This document shows, in pieces, positions 36,013 through 56,828 of a stretch of DNA of 64,000 nucleotides (position 1 is the stretch's first letter; the number at the start of each line of letters is the position of its first letter). The notes beneath the pieces are model-generated. The model was not told where the DNA came from. It saw only the letters and a program-made list of their open reading frames with translations, and did not search any database. Source of the DNA: Gammaproteobacteria bacterium (GTDB taxonomy: Bacteria > Pseudomonadota > Gammaproteobacteria > HTCC5015); contig BPKE01000001.1 in NCBI GenBank assembly GCA_026004975.1, forward strand, positions 373,788 through 437,787, written 5' to 3'. The position numbers were made by a program, and so were the translations under genes.

Positions 36013-36101
36013 ATGCACCGCCCTCGATGCTCGAGCGCCTCCGGCCGCGGGCATCGCGGGCGGTTGCGGTCGATGGCCTCCATGGCGATGGCGGCAAAGC
36101 T

Positions 36102-37218: not shown

Positions 37219-40200
37219 TCAGAATTTGCCGACGAGGTTGATGAAGGCGCCCTGGCTGTCGTAGTCCAGGTCGGTGAGGTCGTCGGAGAAGTCGGTGAAG
37301 TTGTAGCCGACGCCGAGCTTGACGTGGCGGCCGAGGTGTTTGTAGAGGGCGGTGAGGAAGCCGGCGCGTTCGTCCTGGGCTTGTTCGACGGCGAGGCGGC
37401 GCCCTTCGATGAGCCAGTCCCAGCTGTGCACGAGGTGCCAGTCGACGCGCAGGATGGTGAGGTCGGCGTTGCTGGCGAAGAACTCGGGGTTGCTGCGGTC
37501 CAGGGCGACTTCGCCCAGGCGCCGCGCCCATTTGGCGCCGAGGGTCCAGCGCGCCGTGAGGCGGTAGTTGCCGTCGATGGAGAGGATGCGGCTTTTCTGG
37601 ATGAATTCGCTGCGGGTGCCGGGCAGGCTTTCTTGTTCGGGCGCGGGCAGGTTTTCGAACCAGGTGAGTTTGAACAGCAGATTGAGCCGGTCGTGGGCGA
37701 CGGGCCGGTAGGCGTAGCCGAGGACGGCTTCGGTGAAGTCGCCGTCGTAGAAGGCGCCGCGGTTGGAACGGCTGCGCGCGGCGTTGTACTTGGCCAGCAG
37801 GCGGCCGTCGTCGCCGAGCCGCCATTCGAGGTTGGAACGCCACAGCCGGGTGGTGCGCCGGTCCTGGAGGCTGGCGTCTTCGCGCCATTCGAGGGCGGCG
37901 GCGGCACGCAGCGCATCGCCGCGCCAGCCGGTGGAGAAGCTGTAGGCGGAACGGTCGAGGACCAGGCCGGTGAAGGGGTCTTGGAGTTCGCCGCGTTCCA
38001 CGGCCAGACCCAGGGCGAGGGTCTCGACGGGGTTCCAGTCGAGCCCCCAGGCGTGGGTGAGGCCGCTGGGCTGCTCGCCGAAGGCGTAGCGTTCTTCGCC
38101 GTAGACGCTCAAGGCGTCGCTGTAGCGGCTGCGCAGGCCGACCAGCCCCCGGCCCTGCCGGCCGCCGCTGCGCCCGGCCAGGCGGCTGAAGTCGTCGCGG
38201 TCGGTGTCCACCTGGTAGGCGAAATAGAGTTGGGTGCGGTCGCTGGCGAGGAAGTCGAGGCCCAGGCGGCCGCCGGCGCCGAGGTCGCCGTCGGAGATTT
38301 CGCCGTCGAGCCGCCAGCGGTCGGAAAGCTGGTAGCGGCCCCCGACGCCGATGCGGTCGTTCTCGGCGCGGCCGCCGGCGGTGTCGAGGGTGCTCTGGAG
38401 GAAGCCGTAGCCGGTCCAGCGGTCGCGGCTGTCGTAGGCGACTTCCAGGCCGAGGTCGGTGCGTTCGCCGAGGGCGTCGGCCGGCAGCAGGCTGCCGGCA
38501 CGTTGGTCTTCGCGCCGGTCGCGGCGCAGGGCGGAACCGAGGCGCCAGTGTTCGTCGAGGGTGTAGCGCGCTTCGAGTTCGGCGGCTTCGCTGTCCAGGC
38601 CCTGTTGCTGGCGATGGGCGTCGAAGCGGCCGGCGACGGTCCAGCGCGACCCGATCGGCAGTTCGAGGTCGAGGCCGTGTTGTTCGGTCTCGAGCGGGGC
38701 GAGTTGGCCGGGGGCCGCGAAACCGGCTTCGCGCTGCTGCAGGTAGAGGCGCAGGCGCCCTTCGAAGTCGAAGAGCTCGGAGAACAACCCGGCGGCTTCC
38801 AGGCGCCAGGCGCCGTGGGCCCGGTCGTCGGCGGCGTCGAGGGTCTGGTCGAAGAAGTTGAAACCGCCGTCTTCGGACAGGCGCTGGCTCCAGCCGGGAC
38901 CGCGGCTGCGGGCGCTTTCGAGTTTGACATAGGTCTGGGCGGTCTTGCGCAGCACGAGGTCGACGCCGCCGAGTTCGGCGCGCTCGCCGAAGCGGTCTTC
39001 GTCGGCGGCGGTGAGCCCGAGCTGCAGGTGGTCGCCGAACCAGTGGGCGAGGCGCAGGCCGCGGCTGGTGTCGTCGATCTCTTCGAAGCCGGGGGTGTAT
39101 TCGTAGCGGGCGACGAGGAAGACGGGGTGCCCGCCCAGGCCGTCGGTCTGGACGATGCGCCCGTCGTCGGCGGTGGACGGCAGGGGCTGGTTGAGCAGGA
39201 TGCGGCCCTGGATGTAGTCGATGTCGTAGTCCTGGCCCCAGACGAGTTCGCGGGTGGACAGGACGATGCCGGAGTCCTTGTCGCGCACTTCGATGCGCAG
39301 GCGTTCGGAGCCCTGGGTGATGTCGCGGTTGCGCAGGTAGTAGAGGGAGCCGCCGGTGCCGCGGAATTCGTCGCGGGCGAGGACGGTGCCGGGCTGGGCG
39401 AGGTAGAGTTCGCCGCGGCTGCGCCGTTCGCCCAGTTCGGTGACGGCGTCGCTTTCCAGGTGCAGTTGCGCGCCGTAGAGGACGCGGTCGACCTGGGCGA
39501 GTTCGGTGTCGAGCCAGCGCGCCTTGAAGTTGCCCCACAGGACGTGGTCCTGGTCTTTTTCGGCGCGCAGGTAGAAGCGGCCGGAGGTGGGCGCGTCTTC
39601 GATGAGGACGCTGTCGTCGCCGAAGGTGGGGTAGTGGCGGTCGGGGTCGAGGCGCCGGAACAGGGTGTCGGGGTCTTTCTTGTCGAAGTTGCTGAACAAC
39701 TCGTCGATCGGTTGCTCGCGGGTGTCGGCGCTGGCGGTGACGGTCCAGCCGCCTTCGGTGCGCCCCTTGGTGTAGAAGGCGAGCCGGCCGTCGGCCCAGA
39801 ATTCGCTGTTGTAGTGGGTCGGATCCTGGGTGACGAGGCTGGCCGGGCCGTTGGTTTCGTCGCGACCGAGGACCAGGTCGGCGAGCCCGACCAGGAACCA
39901 GTCGTTTTCGGCCATGTGCAGGTCGCGCAGGTAGAGGCGGCCGTTCCCCCGTTCGTCCAGCACGGCGACTTCGACCGTGTGGTAACCCGGGGGCACGATT
40001 TGTTCGGCGACGAAGCGGCCGTCTTCGCCGACCGGGACGCGCCGGCCCATGACCCAGACGCGGTGCCCCGGCGGCAGGTTGCGGCCGGCGACGGTGACGA
40101 CGCCGCCGCGGACGGGGATCCGGCGCTGGGCGAGGCGGCTCTCACCCCAACCGGCGCGCTCGATCTCGGCCTCGAGCGCCTCGGCGGCGGCCGGGTCGAG

Positions 40201-42351
40201 CACGCGCGAGACCAGCCAGATCGGCTGCGGCTCGGTCTGGTCCCAGCGGCCTTCGGCGTCGTAGACGCGCAGCACGTACTTCAGGGGCTGGACGGGCCCG
40301 GCGAAGGGTTCGAGCGGCGGCGGGGTCCACCATTCGGCCTGGCCGTCGTCGTTTAGCGGCAAAACGGCGAGCGGCTCGGCCTGGAGGCTGTCTTCGGCGT
40401 GGTGGATGCGCACTTCGGCGCGGGCGATGAAGGCGCTGTAGTTGCTGTAGGCGACGAAGCGGATCTTGTTTTCCATGCGCCGCGTGGCCGGGTCGTCCCA
40501 GTCGCTCAGGTAGGGCGGCAGGGCCTGGATGTCGAGCCGCGGCGCGGCGCCCAGGGGGTCGTAGCGCAGTTGCAGATCGGCTTCGGCCAGGGCGCGGTCG
40601 ATGCAGCGCTGTTCGTCGGCGCCGTGGCGGCGGCCGTCGTCGACGGGTTGCCCGTCCACGCTGATGCGGATCGGCTGGAGCAGGAAGGGGCTGACGGGCG
40701 GTTCGTCGACCTGGACGCGCTCGATGACCAGGTTGGGGTCTTCGACGAGTTCGGCCGCTTCTTCGTAGAGGAATTCGAGTTCGACGCGGTTGTCGCGCGG
40801 GTCGACGGTGCCCTCCTCTTCCGCGCCGGCGGCCTCGAAGCGCAGGCGGGCGAAGGGCGAGTCGTCGGCGCGCCGGTACGGCTCGAGGAAGCCGCGCCCT
40901 TCGGTGAGCAGGCGGTCTTCGGGCAGGCCGAGGCGGCGCGCGAGTTCGGCCTTGACGCGCTCGGCGCGCGCCAGGGAGAGCTTGAAGTGGTCGCCGTAGA
41001 GGGCGGCGGCGCGGCGGCTGAGGGCCTCGTTGCTGGTGTGGCCCACGACGTTGATGCGCAGCCCGGGCTTGTCGCGCAGGGTGTCGAGGATGCGCCGCAC
41101 GCTTTCGAAGAAGCCGTTGGGATAGACCGGGTCGCCGGCCTTGAAGAAGACGACGGGTTTTTCGTCCTGGTAGACGGCGGTGACGGTTTCGCTCTGCGCG
41201 GCGCCGGGACAGGGCCGCGGGGTTTCGACGGCTTCGGGGTCGGGGTCGTCGTGCCAGATCTCGATTTCGATGCGGCGGTTCAGGGCGCGGCCCTGGGCGT
41301 CGGCGTTGGAGGCCACCGGCTCGGTCTCGCCCTTGCCGACGGCGGTGATCATGCGGTTGGGCAGGCGCAGCGTCTCGGCGAGTTCGCGGGCGAGGCGCCC
41401 GGCCAGGGCCTTGGAGAGGGTGAGCTTGTCGCCGTAGAGACGGGCGAGTTCGGGCGGCAGGGGCAGGTTGTCGGTGTGGGCGACGACGCGCAGCGACAGG
41501 CCGGGCAGGTCGCGCAGTTCGGCGAGCGCGTCGCGGATGCGGATCAAGTGGCGCTCGTCGAGTTCGACCTGGGTGCCGTCGTAGTGCAGGGGCGGCACGG
41601 CGCCGACGACCTGGATGCGCCGGCGCTGGCCCTGTTTGCGCTTGTACAGGCAGCGCTCGACGCGGCGGCAGACGGGGACCTGGCGCAGGCCGGGGTCTTT
41701 TTCGACGCGCTCCTGGACGCGGCGTTCTTCGATTTCGTCGTACCAGACTTGCACTTCGACGCGCCGGTTGCGGGCGCGCCCGGCCGGGGTGGCGTTGTCG
41801 GCGATCGGTTCGGCGGCGCCGCGGCCTTCGAAGGTGACCGCCTCGGGCGGCAGTCCCAGGGCGCGCTGGAAGAACTCGGCGGCCATGCGCGCCCGCGCCT
41901 CGGACAGGCCGACGTTGTCGCCGTAGAGGGCGCGGCCGCGTGGGCCGAGCGGCTGGTTGTCGGTGTGGCCGATGATGTGCAGGCGCAGGTTGGGCTTGTT
42001 TTCGAGTTCGGCGAGCACGGTGCGCAGGCGCTCGACGACGGTGTCCGGGATGTCGGCGCGGCCGGTGGCGAAACCGATCGGTTCGACGACGTCGGTGAGT
42101 TTGACGGTGCGCGCCTCGCGCTGGAGGGTGGTGCGCAACTCGACGGTGTCCTCGCCGCTCGGCCGGAAGTCGTCCTCGTCGTGCACCCAGAGGGTGAATT
42201 GGAGGTCGGGCAGGAGGCGCTCTCCGGCGGGCGGCGCCTCGGCCCGGCCGAGCACCGGCCCGCTGCAGTCGGCGCGGCCGCAGGCGCCCTGCCCGGCCGC
42301 CGGACCGGCCAGGAGCAGGGTGCAGAGCCAGGCGGCGAGACGGCGCGTCAT
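37219..42351 (-). CDS. 1,710-aa outer-membrane protein: signal peptide, three OmpA_C-like peptidoglycan-binding modules, and a very large C-terminal putative beta-barrel
   Basis: Uninterrupted frame inside track ORF 37219..43764. ATG at 42351 (MTRRLAAWLCTLLLAGPAAG). OmpA-like modules carry HIIGHTDNQPLG...LSEARARMAAEFF...NRRVEVQVW, VVAHTDNLPL...NRRIEIEIW and VVGHTSNEAL...DNRVELEF (about aa 88-527). Residues ~815-1710 show amphipathic-strand-like periodicity and end ...GVGYNFTDFSDDLTDLDYDSQGAFINLVGKF (terminal Phe). Confidence 0.85.
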   Translation of the reverse strand: MTRRLAAWLCTLLLAGPAAGQGACGRADCSGPVLGRAEAPPAGERLLPDLQFTLWVHDEDDFRPSGEDTVELRTTLQREARTVKLTDVVEPIGFATGRADIPDTVVERLRTVLAELENKPNLRLHIIGHTDNQPLGPRGRALYGDNVGLSEARARMAAEFFQRALGLPPEAVTFEGRGAAEPIADNATPAGRARNRRVEVQVWYDEIEERRVQERVEKDPGLRQVPVCRRVERCLYKRKQGQRRRIQVVGAVPPLHYDGTQVELDERHLIRIRDALAELRDLPGLSLRVVAHTDNLPLPPELARLYGDKLTLSKALAGRLARELAETLRLPNRMITAVGKGETEPVASNADAQGRALNRRIEIEIWHDDPDPEAVETPRPCPGAAQSETVTAVYQDEKPVVFFKAGDPVYPNGFFESVRRILDTLRDKPGLRINVVGHTSNEALSRRAAALYGDHFKLSLARAERVKAELARRLGLPEDRLLTEGRGFLEPYRRADDSPFARLRFEAAGAEEEGTVDPRDNRVELEFLYEEAAELVEDPNLVIERVQVDEPPVSPFLLQPIRISVDGQPVDDGRRHGADEQRCIDRALAEADLQLRYDPLGAAPRLDIQALPPYLSDWDDPATRRMENKIRFVAYSNYSAFIARAEVRIHHAEDSLQAEPLAVLPLNDDGQAEWWTPPPLEPFAGPVQPLKYVLRVYDAEGRWDQTEPQPIWLVSRVLDPAAAEALEAEIERAGWGESRLAQRRIPVRGGVVTVAGRNLPPGHRVWVMGRRVPVGEDGRFVAEQIVPPGYHTVEVAVLDERGNGRLYLRDLHMAENDWFLVGLADLVLGRDETNGPASLVTQDPTHYNSEFWADGRLAFYTKGRTEGGWTVTASADTREQPIDELFSNFDKKDPDTLFRRLDPDRHYPTFGDDSVLIEDAPTSGRFYLRAEKDQDHVLWGNFKARWLDTELAQVDRVLYGAQLHLESDAVTELGERRSRGELYLAQPGTVLARDEFRGTGGSLYYLRNRDITQGSERLRIEVRDKDSGIVLSTRELVWGQDYDIDYIQGRILLNQPLPSTADDGRIVQTDGLGGHPVFLVARYEYTPGFEEIDDTSRGLRLAHWFGDHLQLGLTAADEDRFGERAELGGVDLVLRKTAQTYVKLESARSRGPGWSQRLSEDGGFNFFDQTLDAADDRAHGAWRLEAAGLFSELFDFEGRLRLYLQQREAGFAAPGQLAPLETEQHGLDLELPIGSRWTVAGRFDAHRQQQGLDSEAAELEARYTLDEHWRLGSALRRDRREDQRAGSLLPADALGERTDLGLEVAYDSRDRWTGYGFLQSTLDTAGGRAENDRIGVGGRYQLSDRWRLDGEISDGDLGAGGRLGLDFLASDRTQLYFAYQVDTDRDDFSRLAGRSGGRQGRGLVGLRSRYSDALSVYGEERYAFGEQPSGLTHAWGLDWNPVETLALGLAVERGELQDPFTGLVLDRSAYSFSTGWRGDALRAAAALEWREDASLQDRRTTRLWRSNLEWRLGDDGRLLAKYNAARSRSNRGAFYDGDFTEAVLGYAYRPVAHDRLNLLFKLTWFENLPAPEQESLPGTRSEFIQKSRILSIDGNYRLTARWTLGAKWARRLGEVALDRSNPEFFASNADLTILRVDWHLVHSWDWLIEGRRLAVEQAQDERAGFLTALYKHLGRHVKLGVGYNFTDFSDDLTDLDYDSQGAFINLVGKF

Positions 42352-45300
42352 TGCAAGGGGCGCCCCCGGCGCCAGTAGGTTTCGGTTTCGACGAGCAGGC
42401 GGTAGCAGCAGCCTTCGGCACGCCAGCGCGCTTCGATCTCGGCGACGACGGCGGCCAGGCGGGCGGCGGCCAGGGCGCCGGATTCGAGGTCGCCGAGGTA
42501 GGCGACGCGCAGCACGCTGGGCGCTTCGCGCAGGCGTTCGAACAGGGTGTCGAGTTCGCCGGCCCAGTGCGGGCGCAGGGCGACGCCGCCGGGCTCGAAG
42601 GCGGCGTCGGCGAGATCGAGCCGCACGACGCGGTGGACGGCGGCGCCGAAGGCGACCTGGCCGAATTTGCCGCGGGTCAGGCGCAACACGCGCGGGTTTT
42701 CGCTGGTGACGCGGTAGCCGCTGGGCAGGGTGCGCGGGTCGAGTTCGATGATGAAGTGGCTGCCGCGGTCGAGGTTCGGCACCTGGGCGCAGGCGATGTG
42801 GAAGCGGCCGTGCGCGTCGGTGGTGACGAGCAGGCCGCGGGCGGTGGCGAGCCGAACGCCGGCGAGCCCGGGTTCGCCCGGATCGGGCTCGCCGTCCAGG
42901 TCGCGGTCGTCGAAGACTTTGCCGACGATGTCGGCGCAGTCGAAGGTGGGGTCGGGCACGACGCGCACGGTGGCGCTGGCCTCGCCGGAGACCGGCTCGG
43001 CCAGACCGGCGATGAAGGCCTGGGCGAGGTTGACGTATTCGCCCTCGCCGACGCCGGCGCCGACGACCAGCAGCAGTTGGATGCGGCTGCGCGCGCCGGG
43101 CGCCAGGGCGAAGGGCGGAAAGTCGAGCCGGCGACCGTCGCCGAGCGGTTCGAAGGGCAGGCCGTCGCGGCGCGCCGAGCCGGGCAGGTATTTGAAGCCC
43201 GGCGGCATGGTGTCGCGCACGATCAGGCCGCTGATGTTGAAGTCCTGCGGGTTGCTCACCTCGATGGTGTAGGGCACGGCCTCGCCGCGCACGACGTTTT
43301 TCAGGGGCGTGGTCTTGCTGATGGTGACCAGGCCGGCGGGCACGTCGTCGAGCGGGATATGGTGGTTGAAGGGGCCGCGCTCGCCGTCGCCGTAACGGAC
43401 GGTGAGGTGGTAGCGGGTGCCGGGGCCGGGCGGCACGTCGCTGGCGGGCGCTTCGGGCTGGGGCTGCACTTCGCACTCGGCGGTGGCGGGCACGGCGTCG
43501 GCACCGCAGTTTTCGGGATCGAGGGTGGTCGGCTCGGGCGGGATGACGACCGAGACGTTTTCGCGCCAGCCGCCGGCGCCGTCCGGGGTTTCGACGAGCA
43601 GGCGGTAGACGCCGCCCACCGGGCAGGCGGGGTCGGCGCCGGGACGCAGGTCGAAGCGGTAGAAGGCTTCGCCGTCGCTGATCTGGCCCTGCTGGCTGCC
43701 CAGGTGCGGCGGGGTGTCGAAGCAGGCCTCGGGCAGCGGCCCGCCGTCCTGGCGACGCAGCCACAGCCGCGCGCCGGCCGGGAAACGCTCGCGGGTGACG
43801 GAGTTGTAGAGCCGGCCGTGCGGATCCAGCGGCAGGTTTTCATCGAGGACGTTGCGCCCGGCTTCGGCCTGGATACCGGCGATGCGCATCAGGCCGGCCT
43901 CGCCGACGGCCGGGGCGCTGCGGCCGAGGGCGCGGTTGGAGCCGGCCGGCCAGCCGGGGCTGCCTTCGGGGACGGCGAAGGTGACGGTGTAGGGGCCGCC
44001 GGGCGCCAGCCCGACGATGGCGAAGCGGCCGTCCTCGCTGGTGGTGAAGCGGTCGATGGGGGCGTCGGCCGGGCCCGGCGCGGGCCGGTCGAGGTAGACG
44101 GCCAGCGGCCAGCCGCCGAAGACCTGCTCGCCCTCGTCGTGGCGGTCGTCGTGGTCCGGGTCGTGCCAGATGCGGCCGCGCAGGGTGACGGTGCCGGGGG
44201 CGCCGCCGACGTCGACGCGGGCGCTGTCGGTGGGGCAGCCGCTCATGCAGGCGTTCCAGCGCACTTCGGCGGTGTTGACGATGGGCGTGCCCTCGGCGAG
44301 GGTGTCGTCGAGGGTGACGCGGAAACTGAATTCGAAGTCCGCACCCGGCTGCAGGGCGCCGTAGGTGGCCCCGTAGTCGGCGCTGAGGGTGGCGCCGGTG
44401 ACGCTCACGCCCCGGGCGAAACCGTCGAGCAAGGCGCTGCCGGCGACCAGCTCGGTGCCGGCCGGCAGGGTGTCGAGCACGCGCAAGCCGCTGATCGGCA
44501 CGGCGCCGGGGTTGGCGACCCGGATGCGGTATTCGAGCCGGCCGCCGGGTTCGGCGGTGCCGCCGCCGACCACCAGGACTTCCTTGCTGATGGTCGGACG
44601 GCCGTCGCCGCCGACCACGAAGCGGGTCGGGCCGTCGCCGTTTTCGTCGTTGCCGTCGGCGTCGCTGGGCTCCTCGGGCTGCACGACCGAGCGCAGCCGC
44701 GCCTGGTTCTCGACGACGGTGCCCGCGGCGGTGCCCGGCGCCACCCGGGCGTCGACGGTGACCTGGACGCCGCCGCCGGCCGGCAGCTCGAAGCGCAACC
44801 CGCCCTGGGCGGGGTCAAGCGGCGGGCCGGCGCCGTCGGGCTGGACGACGCCGTCGAGGGTGGTGGTCCCGGGCAGGTAGGCGAGCTCGGCGGGCAGCGC
44901 GTCGAGCAGGGTGACTTCGCCGGCGTCGAGGTTGCCGCGGTTGGTGGCGACGAGGGTGTAGCGGACGCTGTCGCCGGCGTCGATGACGCCGTCGCCGTCG
45001 AGGTCGTCGACCAGGGCGACGGTCTTGAGCAGATCGAGGTTGACGCCGCGACCGACCACGTCCTGGGTGGGGTCGGCGGGCAAGGGAGTGTCGGGATCGT
45101 CGCTGAACACGGGCGGGAACGGCAGCGGCGGCGCGGCCGGGTCGGCCTGCTCGATGCCGCCGCGCAGCACGCCCTGGTTGGAGAGCACGGTGCCGTTGGC
45201 CAGGCCCTCGTCGACGCGCACGTCGAAGGTGACGACGGCGACGTTGCCGGCGGCCGGATCGGGGTCGGCGGCCAGCCGCCCGGCGCCGGCGCCCGGGGAC

Positions 45301-48300
45301 TGGATGAGCAGGCCCGCTTCCAGCGGCGCGCCGCCATCGGCCGGGTCGGGCACGGGCGCGCCGTTGAGGGTGGTGCTGCCGGCCACGTAGCGGGTGTGGG
45401 CCGGCACGGTGTCGGTGAGCACCACGCCGACGGCGTCGGCGTCGCCGACGTTCTTGACGGTGAGGGTGTAACGCAAGCGCTCGCCGCCGAGCAGCACGCC
45501 GGGGTCGCCGTCGAGGTCGGCGGAGGTCTTCTCGAAGACCAGTTCCGGTTCGGCGCCGATGAGGGTGACGGTGGGGTCGGCGGGCTCGGGGGTGAGCGGG
45601 TCGTCGCTGGGCCGCGGACTCATGGCCGGGGCGTCGATTTCGGCCTGGTTGGCGACGACGAGGCCGGCCGGCAGCGGCGCGGCCAGCGTCAGTTCGAAGA
45701 CCAGTTCGATGCGGTCGGCGCCGCCCCCGGCCGCGTCGATCGGGATGTCGTCGATGGCGATGAGGCCGTTGCCGGCCGCGCCGCCGGCGGGGTCGGTGGC
45801 GTCGTTCCAGGCCGGGTCGGGCGGCACGACCCACACCAGGCTGCCGGGCGCGAAGGCCGCCGGTGTGTTCAGGGCGTCGATCTGGTCGCGCAGTTGCAGG
45901 ACCGTGCCGAGGCGGCCGGTGTTGGTGATTTCCAGGGTGTAGCGCAGGGTGTCGCCGGGCCGCGCGGTCAGCCCCGGGTCGGCGCCGCTGCTGGCGTTGA
46001 CCACGCGCTTGGTGAAGCTGAGCACGGGGGCGCGGGTCTCGAGCGGCAGATCGTGCGCCCAGTCGTCGTCGGCGACGGCGACGGTGCCGGAGCCGGCCGG
46101 TTGCTGGTAGACGACGGCGCCCGGCGGGACGCCGGCGCTGGTGTCCTCGCCGTACCAGCGCTCGACCAGGGCGCGGTTGACGACGGCCAGGCCGTCGCCG
46201 GTGTCCTCGACCAGGGCGGCCTCGTAGACGACGCGCAGGACCTCGCCGGGCTCGATGCGCGCCGCCGCCGAGCGCAGCTCGATGGTGAAGGCGCCGCTCG
46301 CCGGGTCGTAGGCGAGGTCGTAGTCGTCGGGGCCGGCTTCGCTCAGGCTGCGCCCGCCGACTTCGATGGAGACGATCTGCGGCGGATCGGCGCCGCGCAT
46401 TTCGGGCGGCAGGATGTCGAGCAGGCGCGCCTGCCAGATGGTGGTGGTGTTCGGCGCGTCGTTGGCGACTTCCAGGGCGAAGCGCTCGGGCGTGCCCAGA
46501 TCGATGAAGCCGTCGGCGCCGGGGGCGGCTGCGGGGCCGAGCTCGATCTTGCTGAGCAGGGGTTGCGGGACGACGACGGTGAAGCTGGCCTCGTCGCTGC
46601 CGCCGAAGGTGTTGGCCGGCTGGCCGGGGGCGTCGGCGAAGCGGTACTCGGCCCGGTTGGTGACGACGGTGCCGGCCGGTCCGGCCGCCGGCTCGACGCG
46701 CACGCTGAGCAGGATCTCGGCCTGGCTGCCGGCGGGCAGCTGTTGCAGGCGCAGGCGCACCTGGTTGCTGCCGGGGGCGGTGAGGTCGGTGAGGCCGACG
46801 GCGCCGTTGCCGGGGCCGAAGGCGGCGCCGAGGTAGGTCAGGCCGGGCGGCAGGTCGTCGTCGACTTCGACCTCGTAGAGGGTGGTGACGGCCGGGGTGT
46901 CGGGGAAAGCGCAGCCGGTACTCGATGGTCTGGCCGTGGGTGGCCTCGGCCGGGCCGTCCTTGATCATGTTCATGGGGGTCTGGGCGGTAACGGTCACGG
47001 CGACCGGGCCGACCGGACCGTAGAGCCGCGCCGGATCGGTGGGCCGCGAGGCGTAGCGGTCCACTTGCAGGCGGTTGCTGAAGATGGCGCCGGGGCCGAC
47101 CTCGGGGTCGACGTTGAGGGCGTAGACGATGACCAGGCAGTTGCCGGGGGCCTGGTGATCGAGGGCGTCGCCGGGCGCCAGGGTCCAGATCAGTTCGCCG
47201 CCGGCGAAGGCGAAGTTCGGGCTGTTTTCGTCGTAGTCGGGGGTGCGGTCGACGCCGCCGAGGGTGACGCTGACGACGTCCGGGTCGGGCGGCGCGCCGT
47301 CGGCCCCGTCGAGCTCCGGCGGCAGGGTGTCGCGCAGCACGAGACCGTAGGCCGGGGCGGTGCCGCTGTTGCACACCTGCAGGGTGAATTCGAGCCGCTG
47401 GCCCGCGCTGACCAGGGCCGGGCCGCCGTCGCTGCGCTGCTTGTCGAGGTCGGCCGGGCCGATGAAGGGTTGCTGGACGGTGATCGTGGCGGCGGCGTCG
47501 GCGCCGGCGGCGGGCGTGCCGTCGTCGCGCAGGTGGTCGACGCGCGCCAGGTTGGCCAGGGCGGTGCTGCTGGCGCCGGCGGCGGGGTAAGGCACGGCGA
47601 CGGCGTCGTCGCGCACCCGCGCCCGGTAGCGGATGACGAAACGGTCGTTGGCCGGGTCGTTGTCGGCGGCGTTGCCGACGTCGCCGAGGGTCCAGGTGAG
47701 GGTTCCGGTGGCGCCGGCGGCCGGGGTGGCGGCGGCGGCGATGGGGGCGTGGGCGAAGGGCGCGACCGCCTCGTAGGGCGCGCTGTCGTCGCCGTTGACG
47801 CTGAGCGTGGCGACGAATTCGAGGCCGGGCGGCAGGGTGTCTTGGACCACCAGCCCGCGCACCAGCCCTTCCTGGAGACGGATTTCGAGGCGGAAATCGA
47901 CGGTGTCGCCGACGCGCAGGTCGTCCGGTGTACCGGGGTATTCGTCGGCCTCGCGGGTTTTGTCCAGGGCGGTGAGCTCGGGCACGGCGGCGGCGGCCTG
48001 GACGGGGCCGGCGCAATAATCGTCGGGGGCGGTGACGGCGGGACAGCCGGCGCCGTCGCGCTCGAGATCGGAGGGGCCGTCGAGCGAGCTCCAGTCGGCG
48101 CTCAGACTGTTGTCGAGCACCGCGCCGGGCTGGGCGTCGTCGGCCACCCGCAGGCGGTAGACGAGCACGAACACGCCGCCGGCGGGGATGTCGAGGCTGT
48201 CGTCGCCGTTGCCGCGCCCCCAGACGAGCGGCCCGGCCGGGGCGCCGGCGGGGACCGGGTTGAAGCCGGCGAGCGGCGCGCCGTCGAGGGTGGCCGAGAC

Positions 48301-51300
48301 GGTGGCGTCGAAGCGCAGGGCCGGCGGCAGGGTGTCGACGAGGTCGACGTCGAAGGCGGTGGCGGTGCCGGTGTTCTCGACGGTGAGGGTGTATTCAACG
48401 AGGTCGCCGGCGTCGGGCCCGGCCGCCGGCGGGGTGAGGGTCTTGGTGAGCTGCAGTTGCGGCTCGACCACGGTGAGGACGACGGGGGGCGCGGTGACGG
48501 GCGCGGCTGCGCCGGCATGGCTCACCTCGGCGGCGTTCTGCAGCAGGTCACCGGCGTCGACGTCCAGGGCGTTGTCGATGCGCACGGTGTAGACGACGCG
48601 CAGGTAGGGGTCGATGGCGCCGCCGCCGGCGTCGTTCTCGCTCTGGGTGACGACGGTGCCGAAGTTCCATTCGATGAGGCCGGTGGCCTCGTCGGCGGGT
48701 TCGACGACGGCGCCGGCCAGGGCGGCGGTGAGCGCGGCGCTGTCGCTGCAGTCCACGGGAATGCCGGCGACGCTGACCAGACCGGCGCACTCGTAGAGGA
48801 TGTCGGCGCCGGCCTCGTGTTCGAGGACCAGGCCGGGGCCGCCGGCGGCGAGGTCGTCGCGCAGGCGCAGATCGAGCGCGCGGCCTTCGGGCAGGCCGAT
48901 CTCGAGGGCGAAGCGCTTGCGCTGGCCCACGGCCGCCGGCAGGGCGGGATCGAGGTCGCTCTTGGCGAGCGTCGGGGCGGGCACATCGAGGGCGGCGGTG
49001 ACCCCGGTTTCGTAGTCGTTGATCCCGCCGTCCGGCGGGATCTGACCGTTGCGCAGGCCGTCGGCGGCGCCGTCGGCGCCGATCGTGCCGCCGCCGTTGA
49101 GGGCGGTGGCGGCGCTGGGCAGGGAGGTCCAGGCGGCGTACAGATCGTGCGGGATGCTCTGCTCGGGGTTGACGGTGCCGAGCACGCGCAGGCGGTAGCT
49201 GAAGTCGAAGGCGCCGCCGACGGGCACGGCGTCGCCGGGAGCGAAGGTGAAGCTCGGGTTGCCGGCCCCGTCGACGGTGACGGTCGGCGCCGGCGTGCCG
49301 GGGGCGGTGACGACGCTGCCCGGCACGTATTCGAGCAGGCCGGCGGGCAGGCCGTCGTAGACGACGAGGTTGTAGGCGTCGGCGGTGCCGGTGTTCTCGG
49401 CCCGGACCTCGACGGTGATCTCGTCTCCGGCGTCGATCTGGTTGTCGGGGGTGACGAGGTTGGGCGGCGGGTCGCCGTCGAAGGGGATGGGGTCACCGAA
49501 CCAGGTCTGCAGGGTGATCTGCGGCTCGCGCAGGGTGAGCCGCGCTTCGTTGATGTCGATGGTGACGGTGCTGCCGGAGGCGTCGACGTAGCGGACGTTC
49601 ACGGCGGTGGACGCGCCGCCGTTGGCGAGCACCAGGCCGTCGTCGATGCCGGCGAGGTTCTCGACCCGGGCGATGAAGCGCGCCTGCAGGGTGTACTGGC
49701 CGACGCCGCCGCTGCCGAGCAGGCGCTGGTCGCCGGCGGTGGACAGATCCCATTCGACGGCGTCGGCGTCGCACTGCACGGCGGGGAAGGTGCCGCCCGG
49801 GTCGAAGCCCGGATCCTGGGCCGGCGGGTCGTAGAGAGGCAGCTCGACGGGGAAGGCTTCGATGCAGCGCAGGCCGGCCGGCAGCTCGTCGCGCAGCCGG
49901 AAGTCGCGCAGCTCGGAGACGGGGATGCCGACCTCGAGCTGGATTTCGACTTCTTCGCCGACAACGGCGGTTTCGTCCACGCAGGGGGTGGGCGTGCAGG
50001 CGCCCGTCACCAGGCCGGCGGCGCGGCGCGCGGTGGCGGTGAACGTCTTGGAACCGGGGGTGACGGTGACGTCGAGCACGCGGATGCCGGCGCGCGCCTC
50101 GGGCAGCACGTATTCGCGCGCGCCGGTGAGGCCGCCGCTGGCGCCGGCGGGCGCACTCTGGTTGCCGCTGGCGCCGGCCAGGCTGTCGTAGCGGCCGGCG
50201 GCGGCGTTGCCGTCGCCGGTGGGGCCGCCGGCGACGTTGTCCAGCACCTGGGTGGGGGTGACGTCGCTGTCCAGCCGCGCGTAGTAGTACAGCTCGACGC
50301 TGGCGCCGGGGTCGAGGCGCGCCAGGGCCGGCGAGTGGTCGCCTTCGAAGGTGAGCACGGCGGGAACGCCGTCGGCCATGACGGTGTTGCTGACGCTGCC
50401 CTCCCCGTCCGGGTCGGCGGCGTCGACCAAACCGTCGCCGTCGTTGTCGATGCCGTCGGTGGCGAGGTTTTCGGGCAGGAGCTGGTCGGAGGGGTCGGTC
50501 GCGTCCTCGATGCGCAGGTCGAAAGCGGGGGCGCGCGGCAGGCCGCCGGCGTCCGCCTCGTTGCTCAGGGTCAGGCGGAAGATGTAGCGGTCGTCGGCGT
50601 CGCCCTCGGCACGCTGCGGCCAGGTGACGAAGGGCTGGCAGGCCGGGCCGACGGCCAGCGGATCGGCGGCGGCCGACAGCGATTCGTTGCACACCGCCTT
50701 GACCAGGCCGACGGCCGGCTCGGCGATGCGCAGGCGGCGTTCGCGGTCGGCGGCGGTCGGGTAGCCGGGGCTGTTTTCGTCGAAGGTGATGCGGTTGCCG
50801 CTGCCGGTGAAGTAGACGTCGAAACGGACGTTCACCTCGTCGAAGCGCTCGGCGGCGTGGACGTTGGGCGCGGCCGAAGCGTTGACCGGGTCGTTCAGGC
50901 TGCGGGTGCTGAACTCGGCGACGAAGCGTTGCTCGGCGCGGTCGTCGGCCGGCGCGGTGATGGGGTCGAGGCGCCAGGCCAAGGCGGTTTCCTGCAGGTC
51001 GGTCGGTGCGGCGGGGTTCTGCACGGCGACGGTCACGCCGGGGGAGCTCGCGGAGAAGTCGATGCCGGCCGGCAGCACGCCCTGGCCGTCGAGGGGATCG
51101 GGCAGGTTGGGCGGATCGGCGGCGGGATCGGCCTCGACCGGCGGCGGGTTGTTGCCGCGCGCGCCCTCGTAGACGCGGGCGTTGCGGATCTCGATGTTGC
51201 CGAAACCGGGGGTGGCGAAACCGAACCAACCGGCGGTGAGCCGGTAACGGCATTCCTCGCCGATCTGGACGATCGGATCGGGGGGTGCGCCGGCCTCGCT

Positions 51301-54300
51301 GCAGGAGACGATCTCCTTGCGCAGGTTGAAGCCGATGATGCGCACCAGGACGTTGTCCTTGCTGTAGTACGGCCAGCCGGCCGCGCCGCGGTCGGGCACG
51401 GGGTTGCCGTCGGCGCCGACGGCGCGGCCGAGGACGTCGGCCCGGAAGGTGAGGTCGCCGGAGCTGCCCAGCGGCAGGGTGCGCTGGATGGTGAAGGTGA
51501 AGGTGTTGCTGGCGCCGGGCGGCAAGGGCTCGTCGAGCCGGCAGAGGAAGCTGCGCGAATCGCCGGGGTCGTACTCGGGCGGCAGGATGCCGCCGGGGTT
51601 GATCGGGTCTTCGCCCAGCTCCGGCGGCGGCGCGGCCGGGTTGCAGCCGGCCGGCAGGGCGCCGGCGTCGATGCCGTTGCCGACGGTGACGTAGAGGTCG
51701 TAGTTGGCGGCGTCGTGACCGCCGCGGTTGGTGAGCACGACGTCGAAGGTGAGCGTCGCCGCGGGGTCGCTGAGGATGTAGAAAAGATCCGGGTCGGCCG
51801 GGTTGATGTCGACGTCCAGGTCTTCGGGATCGACGGGCGCGACGAGCTCGGACGGCAGGTTGACGCTGTCGTCGTCGTCGAAGACGGTGCCGCAGGTGTT
51901 CTCGAAGCGCAGACTGACGCGGTTGGTGGCATCGGCCGGATAGGCGGGGTCGGTGCCGTCGGCCGGGGTTTCCTCGCGCACCTCGGGCTGGTTCAGCGCG
52001 TCGAAGGGGCGCACGCGCACCAGTTGCAGGGTCAGGGTCAGGCGGTCGCCGTGGCGCAACAGATTCGATTGCACGGCGGTGCCGCTGGTGCTGGAGGTGA
52101 AATCGAAGACCGGTTGCGCCGGGTTGCTGTCATCCAGGACGTAGCCGTCGACGAGGCCGGGGTAGTTGCCGAAAGCGGGCTGGACGTCGAGCCCGATCGG
52201 CGCGGTCAGGTCGAGTTCGTAGTCGGCCGGCAGGGTGTCGATGAGCCGCAGGTTGCGCACCGTGCCGCCGGAGTTGTTGAGCACGGTGAGGGTGAGCACG
52301 CCGCGGGTGCCGAGGGGCTGGGCGGGATCGAGGCCGGTCAAGGTCTGCTGGACGATCACGCCGTTGGGATCGACGCCCGCGCTGAGCGCGGCGCCGTCGG
52401 CGTCGTCGGCGCCGACCACGCCCGGGGTGGCGGCATCGAGCCCGCCGGCCGGGGGGCTGGCCTCGCAACCCCATTCGATGGCGGCGTCGTTCTGTTCGTT
52501 GCTGCACAGGTTGCCGACCCGGCCCAGCACGTAGAGGTCGGTGCGGCCGCCGGCGGGCAGGTCGACGAAGGCGCCCGGTTCGTCGTTGGCGGGACTGCCG
52601 AAAGGATCGTCCACGTCGAGGGCGGCGCTGTAAGCGACGCAGGGCGCGAGCAGGCCGCCGCCGCTTTCCATGGCCGCCGCCTGGGCTTCGGCGGCCCCTT
52701 GGTCGGGGCAGATGTAGAGCAGTTGCAGGTTGGTGCCGGGGGTGAGGGTGTCGCGCAGCAGCAGGTCTTCGAGGTCGGCCGAATCGGGGGCGCCGGCCTC
52801 GTCGATGCGCACCCGCCAGATGAGGATGTCGTCGGTGCCGCCGTAGACGGGATCGGCGGCCTGGGCCTCGCCTTGCCGCGCCGAGTAATTGCGCCCCCGC
52901 TTGTCGACCTGCGGCTGGGGCTGGCGCAGCGGCACCTGGAAGGTCTCCTGCGTCGGCGGCAACCCGGGGTCACCGCAGAACAGGTCGAAGTCGGCGCGGG
53001 CGGTGATCTGGCGCGAGGCGCCGGCCAGGGCCTCGGGGTCGGCGCCGGCGGCGCGCACCCGGAAGCGGATGCGCAGGCCGGTGGGCAGGTTGCCGGCGAG
53101 GTCGGAGTAGAGCCGGGCGAGCTCGGGGACGCTGCCGGCGTCCCAGGACAGGGCCGTCGCGCCGTCGGCGTTCGGGTCGGCGGCAAGGACGTAGGCGGCG
53201 CCGCCCTCGGGCACGATTTCGGTCTGGCCGTCGTAGACCAGGCCGGAACCGGTCAGGTCTTCGTCGACGACCACGTCGTAGAGGTCCGAGGCGCCGTCGT
53301 TGCGCACCTCCAGCTCGACCCAGCCGGAACGGCACAACTCGCAGAAACTCTCGGCCTGGTGTTCCAGGGCGAGGTCGATGAGCGGGAAGACGACGTTCGG
53401 CCCGTTCTCGCTGAACAGCACGCTGCCGGCGGTGCAGGCACGGCGGATCTCGGTCTGGTTCGGGTTGCCGACGTTGCAACCGCCGCCTTGCGGCAGGCCG
53501 ATGGCGACGATGACCTCGGTCGAACCGCCGGGCGGCAGGTCCGGCAGGCCGCTCCAGACCATCAGCGGATCGCCGAGCGCGCCCGGGTCGGCCGCCGGGG
53601 TGGAGCCCGCGCGGTACGGCAGGAAGCCGGGCGGCACGCGGTTGGTGAACACCCAGTTCTCGAGCGGCGCGACGCCGGTGTTGGTGATGCGCACCCGCCA
53701 GCGGAACACGCCTTCGTTGCCGGGCAAGCCGGGGTCGACGTCGGCGAAGGCCTGCGGCTCGCCGAGGATCACGTTGGGCGGCAGGAATTCGACGTCGAGC
53801 TGGGCGGGCGGCGTGGTGCCGACGACCGTGATGCTGCGCTGGCGGTCTTCGTCGTCGTCCCAGCCGTTGCCGATGTCCGGCGAGGTGTGGTTGCTGTCCC
53901 AGTAGACCGTCGCGGTCAGTTCGCGGCCCGGCGCGCCGGGCAGGAGGCTGATGGGGAAGCGCACCGTCGACAGGTCGACCAGGTCGTCGCCGTCGTTGGG
54001 GGTGACGTGGATTTCGAGCTGCCCCGGCCCGGGATTGATCTGGGGGGCGAGCGCGGCCAGCGGGCCGCTCAGGGTGACGTCGGTCGCCGCGGCCGGCAAC
54101 TGGTAATCGCTGCTGGTGAACAGCAGCCGGACGTTGTCGGCGACCAGCGGCCGCGGGCTCGGCCCGAGGATGTCGAACACCGCCTCGGTCTGGCCGCAGA
54201 CGCCGGCGTCGTTGGTCTCCTCGATGCGCCCGGTCAGGTTGATCTCGCCGCGCACCAGGGCGAAGGGCAACCCCTGGGTGTAACTGTCGTCCCCGGTGCA

Positions 54301-56828
54301 GGCGCTCGGGTTGTTGGCGACGGTCAGGGTCACGCGCTCGATCCAGCCGCCGAGATTGACGTCGTCGACCGGCTGGCCGTTGGCGTCGAGGTTGCCTTCG
54401 GGGGCGGTGGCGCGGTAGCGAACCAGAAGGCGCGTGCCGGCCATGGCGTTGCCGAGCACGCCGACCAGCGAGGAGAGGTCGATGTCGAAACCGCCGCCCG
54501 GCAAGCGGTTGACTTCGCCGGGGCCGGAACCGAAGGGGAGGAAGGTTTCAGGCAGACCGGGACCATTGGGGTCGACGACCTCGATGCTCACCCCGCTCTG
54601 CTCGCCGTCGTCGGGCTGGCCGTTGCCGTTGGCATCGACGAAGGCCAACTGCAGCGGCGGACCAGGCAGCCCGCCGGCGCCGCTGCCGAGCTCGGCGGCG
54701 AAGCGGCTGCCGGTCCAGACGCCCGCATACGGGTCCGGGAACTGGTAGTCGGCGAGGAAGGTGAGGCGCTCGCCCTCGTTCGGCTCGTCGCCGGCGACCA
54801 GGTTGGTGTCGGGGCGGCCGATCTCGAAGGGCCCTTCCGCGGTGCCCGGGGCGAACATGAAGTTCTGCGCCGGGCTGTCGACCGGGCTTTCGTTGAGGGT
54901 GGTGACCGCGGTGGAACCGAAGGTGAAGCCGCAGGCGGGGTATTCGAGGATCGCGCCGTTGAAGACCTGCACCGGCAGGACCGGCGGCGTGGCCGGACAG
55001 GCGTAGGTGAAATCGATGACGAGGGACGGCAGCGGATCGGAAAGATCCTGCTGGTCGCCGCGCCACTCGATGTAGGCCCCGCCCGGCACGGGGACGTTGC
55101 TGTCGGCGTCGTCGTAGCCGACGCCGTTGATGTACACCCGTGTGCCGGCCGGGATGGCCGGAATGACGCCGGGGCCGACCTCGTTCGGCAGATTGTCGAT
55201 CACCACCCAGTCGTTGTCGTTGTCGATCGCGTCGGCCGGCGGCAAGGCGGCCACGTTCTGGCCGGTCAAGCCGAGCTCGTACTGGCCGGGCTGGCCGAAG
55301 TTCGAGCTGGGGCTGTCGACCTGCTTGAGGACGGTCAACTCGGGGGCGTTGTTGACGGCGTAGGCCGATTGGCGCTGCGGCGGGCTGAAAGGCGTGCCGC
55401 AGACGTTTTCGTAATACGGCGACCAGGTCAGGAAGGCGCCGCCGGTGGGCCCGGCGCAGTCGGGCACCGAGACCTCGAAGGACAAGTCGACGACCCCGCC
55501 GGAGTCGAGCACCTCGTCGCCCGAGGCTTCGACGCCGTCCGGACCGAGCCAGACGAAGGTGGCGGTGGGCGCGTCCCAGCGCCATTGCGGCCCGACGTTG
55601 GCGATCGTCAGACCGGCCAGGCCGGTGACGGTCATGCGGATGTTGCGCGCCGGCCCGCCGTTGCCGCCCAGCCCCGGGTTGGCGATCGGCACGCTGACGG
55701 TCGTCGGCGTGCCGTAGTCGATGGCGATGTTGGGCGCGGTGTAATCGAGCAGCGGATCCTGCAGATCGAGCACCACCGAGTCGAAGGCGGCACTGGTGTT
55801 GCCGATGCGGTCGGCCACCGATACGTCGTTGCGCAGGTCGGGGCAGCTGCCGCCCATGGCGATCACCGCCACTTCGGCCTCGACGACGATGTCGGCGCGC
55901 GCGCCCGGCGCGAGATAGGCGATGGTGTATTGGCCGCTGCCGGACGGCACCGGCAAGGGGGCTGCCGGGCTGGGCGTTGGCTTGCGGCTGCAGGCTCAAG
56001 GTCGCCGCGTCGAAATGCGGACCGGGCGTGTCCTGGACAAGCACCGCGAAGGTGCCGCCCGAGCCGCTGTTGTAGACGCTGACCAGCCACCGGGCCGTTT
56101 CCCCCGTGGGCATAAGCGCCGTTGGGGTCGGCCGGGTTCGGCACGGCGCTCTTGGTGACGATCAGATCGCCGCGGCGCACGGCGACGGTCTGCTGGCCGG
56201 AGACCGCCGCGGCGCTGCCCGGATCACCGGGGACGCTGTTGAAGGTCGCCGTGTAGTCGAGGACGGCGGCGCCGGCCGGCGCGAAGGGCACGGCGTCGCG
56301 CGTCGTCAGGCCGAACTCGAAGCGCAGGCGGCATGGCTCGGCACCGCCGCCCTGCCCCGGCAGCGACGTGCCCGGCGGCAGGACGAAGCTCACGGTGGAT
56401 CCGCTCTGGGTGGCGGTGACGCCGGCCGGGGCGGTGCAGTTGCCGAGCCCCGGGTCGCCGCCGCTCGCGGTAACCGTCACCGGGAAGGGGCTGACCGGCA
56501 GGCGCAGGCCGGCGGGCAGGGTCAAGCTCACCGCGAGATCGTAGGCGATCTCGTCCACGGCCGGGTCGGGCTGGCCGGCGGCGGTGTTGCTGAGCGTGAA
56601 ACGGAAGGTGTCGCCGCTGCTGTTGGTGACCTCGGCCGCACCGTTCCAGGTGCCGCCCGAGTCCATGTACTCGTCGCCGCTGCCCGGCAGGCCGTCGGGG
56701 TCACGGTCCGGGTCGGCCGGGACGAATTCGAAGTCCGAGAAGGCGACTTGCGGCTGTCCCCAGGCCAGCGCCGATGCGGCCAGCGCGAGCAGGGCGAAAC
56801 ACGCACGGCGGCGCCCCGGGAACGCCAT
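42348..56828 (-). pseudogene. giant (~4,800-codon) secreted DUF11-type repeat surface protein or adhesin; three single-base frame breaks, as sequenced
   Basis: Sec signal MAFPGRRRACFALLALAASALAWG at 56828. The gene is four collinear segments: 56828 to ~56103 (ORF 55863..56828), to ~55959 (ORF 54548..56113), to ~46903 (ORF 44815..55956), and to 42348 (ORF 42348..46760). Dozens of modules look like GDLVEYTLTVENTGTATAFDVDLVDTLPPAL. SdrD-B-like modules occur near the C-terminus. The stop overlaps the next gene's ATG. Confidence 0.85.

Follow-up and report, generated by a model that had tools for sequence, protein, structure and literature searches.

A giant CLIPPER/DUF11 protein and a predicted giant barrel with peptidoglycan-binding domains form a conserved gene pair, a candidate display system of the outer membrane

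How could a Sec-exported protein of more than 4,800 residues reach the surface of a Gram-negative cell when a single outer-membrane protein is encoded with it and no secretion genes flank the two? This question is raised by a gene pair in a 64,000-nt stretch of contig BPKE01000001.1 (assembly GCA_026004975.1; ~71% G+C), hereafter the window, which comes from a metagenome-assembled genome (MAG) of a gammaproteobacterium of the 52 °C Katase hot spring. Gene 1 (42348..56828, minus strand) codes for a giant fibrillar protein of the CLIPPER/DUF11 type, and gene 2 (37219..42351, minus strand) codes for an OmpA-family outer-membrane protein of 1,710 aa. An earlier note, made by reading the sequence, had proposed a two-partner-like arrangement of adhesin and anchor/translocon. 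Our data establish that the two proteins form a dedicated cargo-barrel unit. We propose, with a probability of about one half, that the pair is one envelope machine, namely a system that displays a giant adhesin in the manner of a split autotransporter, built around a giant barrel that is tethered to peptidoglycan.

Coding runs without a break on the minus strand from 56828 to 37219, as judged by a frame plot of G+C at third codon positions (GC3) and by a codon-usage hidden Markov model (HMM). It resolves, as the earlier note had read it, into two genes that share an ATGA stop/start overlap (42348..42351, minus strand). The junction sequence is CAATGACG; gene 1 closes with ...TTG CAA TGA, and the ATG of gene 2 (42349-42351) starts one base upstream of that TGA (42348-42350). 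Gene 2 is an intact, single open reading frame (ORF) ending in ...NLVGKF and is 100% identical to KatS3mg121_0375, while gene 1 yields its 4,825 aa once three +1 frameshifts are removed.

The pair is conserved far beyond this organism. More than 660 full-length homologues of gene 2 (45-60% identity, 1,650-1,780 aa) are annotated only as 'OmpA family' or 'MotB', and a survey of one genome per GTDB species, which gives a lower bound, found homologues of its barrel in at least 569 species of Pseudomonadota, Desulfobacterota, Nitrospirota, Acidobacteriota and other phyla. Cultured carriers include Microbulbifer species, Alkalilimnicola ehrlichii, Thiohalomonas denitrificans and Desulfuromonas soudanensis. 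The earlier note had staked its proposal on synteny in relatives, and the synteny held: among the 76 loci whose upstream DNA was long enough, tblastn found about 74 in which the final 450 aa of gene 1 match, at full coverage and 47-54% identity, immediately upstream of the barrel gene, the remaining two giving partial matches only. Gene calls on five independent contigs agree, each with a DUF11/SdrD_B protein of 2.5-4.4 kilo-amino-acids (kaa) followed by a barrel protein. The spacing between stop and start was measured at 72 loci (a 1-nt overlap in ~24, the ATGA overlap in ~12 and gaps of up to 244 nt in the rest); close coupling is common, with a 1- or 4-nt overlap at about half of these loci, but the ATGA junction is not universal. 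Gammaproteobacterial loci have no further conserved gene adjoining or downstream of the pair, and literature searches covering pairs of DUF11 with OmpA, TIGR01451 and giant barrels yielded no account of it.

Natural fusions join the two proteins in a defined order. An exhaustive phmmer search with the barrel against 1.84 billion cluster representatives returned 3,435 relatives, 980 of them at E <=1e-30. Among the 150 best cluster representatives, 25 carry stalk and barrel in a single chain of 2.4-6.9 kaa with the barrel at the C-terminus, and all five of the fused chains that were scanned have a DUF11, DUF7507 or SdrD_B stalk upstream of the barrel. One of the two fused chains that were read (P0260) is an exact fusion of gene 1 to gene 2 with one N-terminal signal peptide: the end of the gene 1 module, IETEVYWRRG, leads into a Gly/Ser/Pro linker that replaces the second signal peptide and then into the OmpA domains and the barrel. 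The same fusion occurs at locus L069 (3279-3480), where no alternative frame encodes a signal peptide. Many other barrel relatives are only ~1,150 aa long and have no OmpA domains. We therefore take the conserved core to be the C-terminal module of gene 1 together with the barrel, with the OmpA domains as a frequent accessory, because one such OmpA-less barrel (P0284, 38% identity) keeps a gene 1-type module upstream of it (41% identity, E 6e-51) at a 4-nt overlap.

Two further relatives deserve mention. The fused protein P0259, which has no OmpA domains ahead of its barrel, carries long acidic D-x-D-x-D-G arrays of a calcium-binding type (thrombospondin type 3-like) at residues ~450-1600, upstream of the CLIPPER stalk. 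Microbulbifer sediminum (NZ_JAJSAP010000001.1; L017 and L018) apparently has two copies of the pair in tandem, with barrels ~16 kb apart and identical tblastn scores, which is either a recent duplication or an assembly artefact.

We then characterized the domains of gene 1 on its frameshift-corrected translation. The protein begins MAFPGRRRACFALLALAASALAWG, a Sec-type signal peptide (MAFPGRRRACFALLALAASALAW; 56760..56828, minus strand) that was read from the translation and is the sole strongly hydrophobic N-terminal segment. Pfam assigns six stretches to DUF11/PF01345, now named CLIPPER (225 bits, E 1.7e-67), with further matches to DUF7507 (CLIPPER_2), bMG10, SdrD_B (residues 4636-4709) and, weakly, CarboxypepD_reg. 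The signal peptide, the train of DUF11-type modules and the SdrD_B/carboxypeptidase-regulatory-like modules that had been recognised by eye are all borne out by translation and Pfam, the carboxypeptidase-regulatory-like ones weakly. NCBIfam adds TIGR01451, with seven stretches across two segments, and the isopeptide-domain model RrgB_K2N_iso_D2. By its tandem DUF11/CLIPPER domains behind a signal peptide, gene 1 classifies as a CLIPPER fibrillar adhesin. Lysines are scarce, only 24 of the 4,825 residues, and 15 or more of these stand at the first-strand position; in the sections of the CLIPPER study drawn on here, it is a first-strand Lys that forms the isopeptide bond (bioRxiv 10.1101/2025.04.25.650565). 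A motif scan found no RTX repeat (no GGxGxD), LPXTG, PEP-CTERM, GlyGly-CTERM or C-terminal transmembrane helix, and Pfam, NCBIfam and the motif scan together gave no recognised secretion signal, in agreement with what had been read by eye.

The part of gene 1 that stays beside the barrel across relatives is its last 470 aa (42351..43760, minus strand), delimited by the conservation map, an AlphaFold2 (AF2) model and the upstream tblastn matches. Besides a Cys-containing region and the last CLIPPER domain, this C-terminal module holds an SdrD_B-like domain and, at its end, a beta-alpha-beta-alpha-beta domain (...IETExxWRRG). The AF2 model (67-sequence alignment, pLDDT 86) comprises the CLIPPER, SdrD_B-like and terminal alpha/beta domains, and Foldseek places it next to Gram-positive pilins, to SdrD and to the crystal structure of a CLIPPER domain, 9ifr (TMt 0.78). 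A profile of the module matched only SdrD B domains among PDB sequences, and hhalign gave no significant similarity between the last ~100 aa of gene 1 and OmpA domain 1 of gene 2 (P 0.0035, probability 9%). Gene 1 is colinear with its orthologues across at least the last ~2,100 aa, and its N-terminal 650 aa have only two relatives among 5.8 billion proteins. The resulting picture, drawn from these comparisons, is that of a variable tip on a conserved base.

Gene 2 has its own N-terminal signal peptide, followed by three OmpA_C-like peptidoglycan-binding domains (residues ~70-600; 40552..42144, minus strand), and Pfam matches the protein to the OmpA family PF00691 in three stretches, above the gathering score (104.6 bits, cut-off 27.2, E 3.7e-30). 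The HTDN...LS.ARA...NRRVE motifs are kept in domains 1 and 2, and the OmpA-type NCBIfam models that match are those of TssL/MotB/Pal. A linker with one or more Ig-like beta-sandwich domains (residues ~601-814; 39910..40551, minus strand), visible as conserved columns and as short strands in the model, leads to a predicted giant beta-barrel (residues ~815-1710; 37222..39909, minus strand) that is supported by AF2/DSSP, Foldseek, a 30-bit Porin_4 match and the phmmer relatives. The AF2 model of residues 760-1710 (46-sequence alignment; pLDDT 72, pTM 0.59) is almost all beta-strand. After the small Ig-like domain, the DSSP strand list gives ~38-40 long strands, which supplies the strand count that the earlier note had wanted for this region; a beta-sandwich is inserted in the barrel (model residues 219-298, gene 2 residues ~978-1057), and the C-terminus is the aromatic motif noted above. 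The signal peptide, the three OmpA_C-like modules and the ~900 C-terminal residues ending in Phe thus stand as originally described, on the ORF, Pfam and AF2.

Gene 2 was also taken by the earlier note to lie outside the known transporter families, and our searches agree. Beyond OmpA, Pfam and NCBIfam give only the marginal Porin_4 match and no TpsB, usher, LptD or type IX secretion system (T9SS) component; residues 618-1710 have no match among PDB sequences, and a plasmid megablast with gene 2 returned none. Foldseek searches of the barrel model against the PDB recover generic outer-membrane barrels (the TonB-dependent transporters BtuB/Cir, LptD, SlpA, SprA, FimD and MtrB) at TM-scores (TM) of at most 0.25, and because of this the fold is assigned no further than 'outer-membrane barrel'. 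In the model, the C-terminal region of gene 2 looks like an outer-membrane barrel outside any solved family.

We combine these observations into the following mechanism. Gene 1 would be exported via Sec, and its bulk would form a stalk, variable at the N-terminal end, of Ig-like domains of the CLIPPER/DUF11 type, while its C-terminal module of ~450 aa (CLIPPER, SdrD_B-like and small alpha/beta domain) would stay at or in the gene 2 protein. Gene 2 would insert in the outer membrane as a barrel of ~38-40 strands, with its three N-terminal OmpA domains fixing it to peptidoglycan. The barrel would hold the C-terminal module of gene 1 and would most probably also be the conduit through which the stalk reaches the surface, so that the fibre would be coupled mechanically to the cell wall. 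The domain content of both proteins, the strict co-occurrence of module and barrel, their frequent translational coupling and their single-chain fusions are direct observations. From them we infer surface exposure of gene 1, docking of its module to the barrel and translocation through the lumen; for exposure and lumen passage we go by how large and variable the stalk is, by its domains of adhesin type, by a barrel that is oversized for an anchor and by the topology of the fusions.

The mechanism has to be read against the state of gene 1 in this assembly. As deposited, gene 1 is not one ORF: its coding frame jumps three times, each time at a short homopolymer on the coding strand. The sites are a GGGGG run (56101..56105), a CCCCC run (55957..55961) and a CCCC run (46902..46905), all on the minus strand and each with one extra base, and they divide the gene into raw frame segments, found from ORFs and the frame plot, at 56828-~56103, ~56103-~55959, ~55959-~46904 and ~46904-42348. 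Removing one base per site gives an ORF of 4,825 aa with no internal stop, which aligns without gaps to P0121 over the first two sites (53% identity) and to the Thiohalomonas orthologue (L003) over the third. The stated size of ~4,800 aa was therefore right for the corrected gene and not for a single ORF as deposited; because the earlier note missed the frameshifts, its observation as a whole is confirmed in part. The public annotation of the MAG is fragmented in the same way, with the final 816 aa of gene 1 called as KatS3mg121_0376, and orthologues exist as undivided gene calls of 4.1-4.4 kaa.

We scanned every coding segment of the window for a missing stop and found one further case, tolA (12813-13725, minus strand). 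It has a +1 frameshift near 13450 in its (EREKA)n repeat, which reads GAGGAAAAGG compared to GAGAAAAGG in other units, and its N-terminal transmembrane part and C-terminal TolA domain lie in different frames. Its surroundings are an otherwise normal tolQ-tolR-tolA-tolB...ybgF cluster. The MAG set was assembled from PacBio HiFi reads by metaFlye without short-read polishing (PMC9671151). Consensus errors are the likelier explanation of the gene 1 frameshifts because the window has four +1 insertions at short runs, the two affected genes are repeat-rich and the HiFi assembly is unpolished. Logan and short-read data gave no contig spanning the sites (the sole Logan contig, L006, is 10.1 kb long and ends 1.4 kb before the third), and an N-terminal protein search returned no identical fragments for them.

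A second qualification comes from a sister clade. At 36 of the 86 related loci, from Desulfobacterota, Nitrospirota, Acidobacteriota and others, a motor cluster follows on the 3' side of the pair in operon-like order: a 172-aa protein, TPR proteins of ~629, ~1,092 and ~227 aa, a 99-aa protein, ExbB/TolQ, two ExbD/TolR and a GltG-like TonB-type protein (L001 15176-25079; also L004, L026, L029, L030, L033, L038 and others). This ExbBD/TPR cluster was found neither in the window nor in the gammaproteobacterial loci. The earlier statement that the pair has no recognisable secretion machinery consequently holds for the window and the gammaproteobacterial clade, but not for the sister clade, where the ExbB/ExbD/TPR/GltG-like cluster directly follows. 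The contigs that carry the cluster come from bins of very different phyla, a 'Parcubacteria' bin and a 'Chloroflexota' bin among them. The cluster is 60-85% identical among its loci, and such similarity across phyla suggests horizontal transfer or mis-binning.

The motor cluster has the same gene content as the Agl/Glt 'core complex', which the parts of the published account used here define as gltC, D, E and G with aglR, Q and S and describe as clustered in Gammaproteobacteria and Geobacter, with a function outside myxobacteria that is unknown (Luciano et al. 2011, PMC3169522). Those parts mention no link to a DUF11 adhesin or an OmpA-barrel protein, and this is one difference. Another is that the NCBIfam scores of the sister-clade proteins are far below the family cut-offs (for GltG, 38 bits versus 650), and because of these scores we describe the sequences as resembling the Agl/Glt core complex rather than as belonging to it.

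Several of these results weigh against the proposed display system. Strand number, closure and lumen size of the barrel all depend on the DSSP list of a moderate-confidence model (pLDDT 72, pTM 0.59), and the passage of gene 1 across the outer membrane and its contact with gene 2 are putative. In the fusions, the stalk is joined to periplasmic OmpA domains, so a surface stalk requires one crossing of the lumen, and the same topology is also compatible with a wholly periplasmic stalk. Given the TolQR-type motor beside it in the sister clade, the pair may need partners. Finally, gene 1 makes up 23% of the window and has three of its four frameshifts (three in 14.5 kb compared to one in the remaining ~50 kb); the deposited assembly contains them, and each lies in a short homopolymer, a slippage-type site. 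Gene 1 could be a real pseudogene, or be phase-variable or heterogeneous in the population, which would leave the pair non-functional or switched off here, whatever its relatives do. We consider such inactivation unlikely: runs of 4-5 bases are short for phase variation, the shifts are all +1, the housekeeping envelope gene tolA has a similar defect in its repeat region, and the assembly is HiFi-only and unpolished. Moreover, right up to each site it is the shifted frame that clearly has the highest GC3, extra stops and decay are absent, and gene 2 is undamaged, which counts against a pseudogene. In this particular organism, a functional system presupposes that the frameshifts are artefacts.

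The remaining alternatives concern what the pair does. That two unrelated envelope genes merely stand side by side has a probability close to nil, as it is contradicted by pairing in ~74 of 76 loci across phyla, by a module kept beside a distant OmpA-less barrel, by frequent stop/start overlaps and by recurrent in-frame fusions. Gene 2 could instead be an anchor only, holding the module while the stalk reaches the surface with the assistance of BAM, the machinery for beta-barrel assembly, or the translocation and assembly module (TAM), through the type II secretion system or by a pathway encoded elsewhere. Both the OmpA domains and the conserved module at the C-terminus of gene 1 agree with anchoring, a C-terminal anchoring domain of OmpA-like type is described for a CLIPPER adhesin of Acinetobacter, and our view is limited to a 64-kb window, so that other systems may lie elsewhere in the genome. 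Nevertheless, a barrel of ~900 aa and ~38-40 strands far exceeds the needs of an anchor (OmpA has 8 strands), the pairing of module and barrel survives in relatives without OmpA domains, stalk and barrel are fused repeatedly in autotransporter order, and the gammaproteobacterial clade has no conserved third gene beside the pair; a pure anchor is improbable in our view. Rather doubtful, too, is an envelope scaffold in which the giant protein remains in the periplasm and, with the OmpA-barrel protein, links the outer membrane to peptidoglycan. Such a scaffold would agree with the fusions, where the C-terminus of the stalk is contiguous with periplasmic OmpA domains, and with the lack of a recognisable secretion signal or machinery, and the chlamydial DUF11 protein OmcB, whose periplasmic location is debated, offers a comparison. 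However, a chain of 25-35 Ig-like domains would extend well over 100 nm, several times the width of the periplasm. In the giant protein, a highly variable N-terminal end contrasts with a conserved C-terminal one, isopeptide-type CLIPPER stalks and the Ca-binding acidic repeats of relatives are typical of extracellular fibrillar adhesins, and a barrel of 38-40 strands has no obvious role in a periplasmic scaffold. The split autotransporter-like display system is the reading that we carry forward.

The genes around the pair were examined as well. On one side lie pilS/pilR, nadE, bamD and rluD, and on the other an isochorismatase gene, a GH11 xylanase gene with CBM60, a Bax1-I protein gene and serS. 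No secretion genes flank the pair within the window, and our scans of the pair and its neighbours bear out the earlier list of absent features (an ABC/membrane fusion protein (MFP)/TolC set, a two-partner secretion (TPS) domain or TpsB, an autotransporter barrel, a chaperone-usher pair, and LPXTG or PEP-CTERM tags). The pilS/pilR-type two-component system (33032-36012, plus strand), which pairs a sigma-54 activator with a PilS sensor kinase of six transmembrane segments, runs convergently toward the 3' end of gene 2, and no pilin gene is visible near it. The 1.2 kb between the convergent ends of pilR and gene 2 (36010-37221) has no coding signature or Rfam match; an ORF of 257 aa called there on the Logan contig (36102-36908, minus strand) has no family match and an unconvincing composition, and was treated as non-coding. 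A short distance upstream of gene 1, a gene at 57788-59242 (minus strand) encodes a secreted GH11 xylanase that carries two xylan-binding CBM60 modules, an unusual cargo for a hot-spring gammaproteobacterium, and this neighbour may be relevant to the binding target of the adhesin. Two tRNA genes (8656-8728 and 59574-59660, minus strand) are the sole Rfam matches in the window. Scanning the two flanks for promoters and terminators gave nothing informative.

The surface placement of Sec-dependent adhesins of several thousand residues in Gram-negative bacteria is understood only for type V systems, chaperone-usher systems and T9SS cargo. Here, a module of two genes, and sometimes of one, occurs in at least 569 species genomes, with a barrel that is in no curated family and may exceed every solved outer-membrane barrel in size. 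If the barrel is the conduit, the pair would represent a widespread and unstudied branch of 'self-contained' secretion in which the fibre is coupled directly to peptidoglycan, and culturable carriers (Microbulbifer, Alkalilimnicola, Thiohalomonas, Desulfuromonas) make this hypothesis directly testable. The operon-like linkage to an Agl/Glt-core-like cluster in the sister clade suggests a specific candidate substrate for that conserved machine, whose function is unknown. As a tentative extension, the pair could be the minimal version of an outer-membrane secretion and display pathway not recognised before, whose barrel would be wide enough to admit folded Ig-like domains and would both export and retain an isopeptide-stabilised giant adhesin, recognising it by the conserved C-terminal module, with the Agl/Glt-like motor energising or moving the version of Desulfobacterota and Nitrospirota. 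The ancestral job of the core complex, a question open since 2011, would then be to power the secretion, tensioning or trafficking of an adhesin, and the system would be an analogue of T9SS/SprB outside Bacteroidota from which the focal-adhesion gliding of myxobacteria could plausibly derive. From a practical side, the CLIPPER stalks of a 52 °C hot-spring organism may serve as heat-stable protein scaffolds.

How does the pair compare to known systems? The earlier note could assign it to no described secretion pathway, and this judgement stands, the features of types Va, Vb and Ve, chaperone-usher, the type I secretion system (T1SS), T9SS and LptD all being absent. Its interpretation as a two-partner-like adhesin and anchor/translocon is partly supported: the dedicated unit, the synteny and the fusions agree with it, and the fusions and the C-terminal module strengthen it, but the arrangement is closer to a split autotransporter than to TpsA/TpsB. 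The support is partial because the translocon role is putative and because of the frameshifts, the non-universal ATGA junction, the motor of the sister clade and this likeness to a split autotransporter.

In type V secretion (Va/Vb), as here, a Sec-exported passenger has a barrel as its own C-terminal domain or as a co-transcribed partner, both fused and split forms exist, and the gene 2 barrel ends in an aromatic residue like BAM substrates. However, the barrel of the pair has ~900 aa and ~38-40 strands rather than 12 or 16, up to three periplasmic OmpA domains stand between cargo and barrel, and the passenger consists of isopeptide-type Ig domains instead of a beta-helix. In two-partner secretion (Vb), the cargo docks by an N-terminal TPS domain, whereas the presumed docking end here is C-terminal; Pfam and NCBIfam found no TPS domain, POTRA domain or 16-strand ShlB/FhaC barrel on either protein. 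The 12-strand Autotransporter domain of Va (PF03797) is likewise missing, gene 1 ending in a soluble alpha/beta domain, and the logic of the Va architecture is shared only through the fusions. Inverse autotransporters (intimin/invasin, Ve) also have a periplasmic peptidoglycan-binding domain directly N-terminal to the barrel and a passenger of tandem Ig-like domains. Their order is reversed, since the intimin passenger follows the barrel and here precedes it, their barrel has 12 strands with LysM instead of OmpA, and Pfam gave no intimin/invasin match on the pair.

Chaperone-usher families (PF00577/PF00345) are absent from gene 2 and its neighbours, with a Foldseek match to FimD at TM 0.18. 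A T1SS of the RTX/LapA type is at odds with the missing GGxGxD repeats, the N-terminal signal peptide and the absence of ABC/MFP/TolC genes among the neighbours. OstA/LptD domains were not found by Pfam, and Foldseek matches to LptD reach TM 0.15-0.19. The T9SS with SprA and SprB/SprF also has a very large barrel made of one chain (SprA has 36 strands), a repetitive adhesin of giant size that is recognised by a conserved C-terminal domain (CTD) and held by a co-encoded outer-membrane barrel, and a proton-driven ExbBD/MotAB-like motor as in the sister clade. The pair, however, occurs mostly in Pseudomonadota and Desulfobacterota and its barrel is dedicated to one cargo; Pfam and NCBIfam found no T9SS CTD, SprA, PorV or PorP, and Foldseek matches to SprA reach TMq 0.16-0.18.

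Further resemblances are to individual components. Myxococcus TraA/TraB is also a variable surface receptor co-encoded with an OmpA-domain outer-membrane barrel protein, but TraA is a lipid-anchored PA14/Cys-rich protein and not a CLIPPER stalk, TraB has ~520 aa, and the TraB model is matched weakly, by the OmpA domains of gene 2 only (E 7e-12, far below cut-off). Deinococcus SlpA/OmpM likewise has a cell-wall-binding module at its N-terminus and a large barrel, of 30 strands, at its C-terminus and is among the better Foldseek matches to the gene 2 barrel (TM 0.19-0.25); unlike gene 2, SlpA has an SLH domain and coiled coil in place of OmpA, has no partner adhesin and shows no sequence similarity. 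For gene 1, a close counterpart is the CLIPPER fibrillar adhesin B9T28_05395 of Acinetobacter silvestris, with a signal peptide, a tandem CLIPPER stalk (one gene 1 CLIPPER matches 9ifr at TM 0.78) and an OmpA-type anchor. Its anchor is on the same chain, and the sections of the paper used here describe no giant barrel and do not address the export route (Protein Sci 2025 / bioRxiv 10.1101/2025.04.25.650565). For gene 2, a possible counterpart is a predicted superfamily of 38- and 40-strand outer-membrane beta-barrels, presented in the relevant sections of its description without function or partner (Solan et al., PNAS 2021, PMC8346858). These would be single-chain barrels larger than any solved, the modelled count of ~38-40 strands fits them, and the barrel of gene 2 may be a member of this superfamily.

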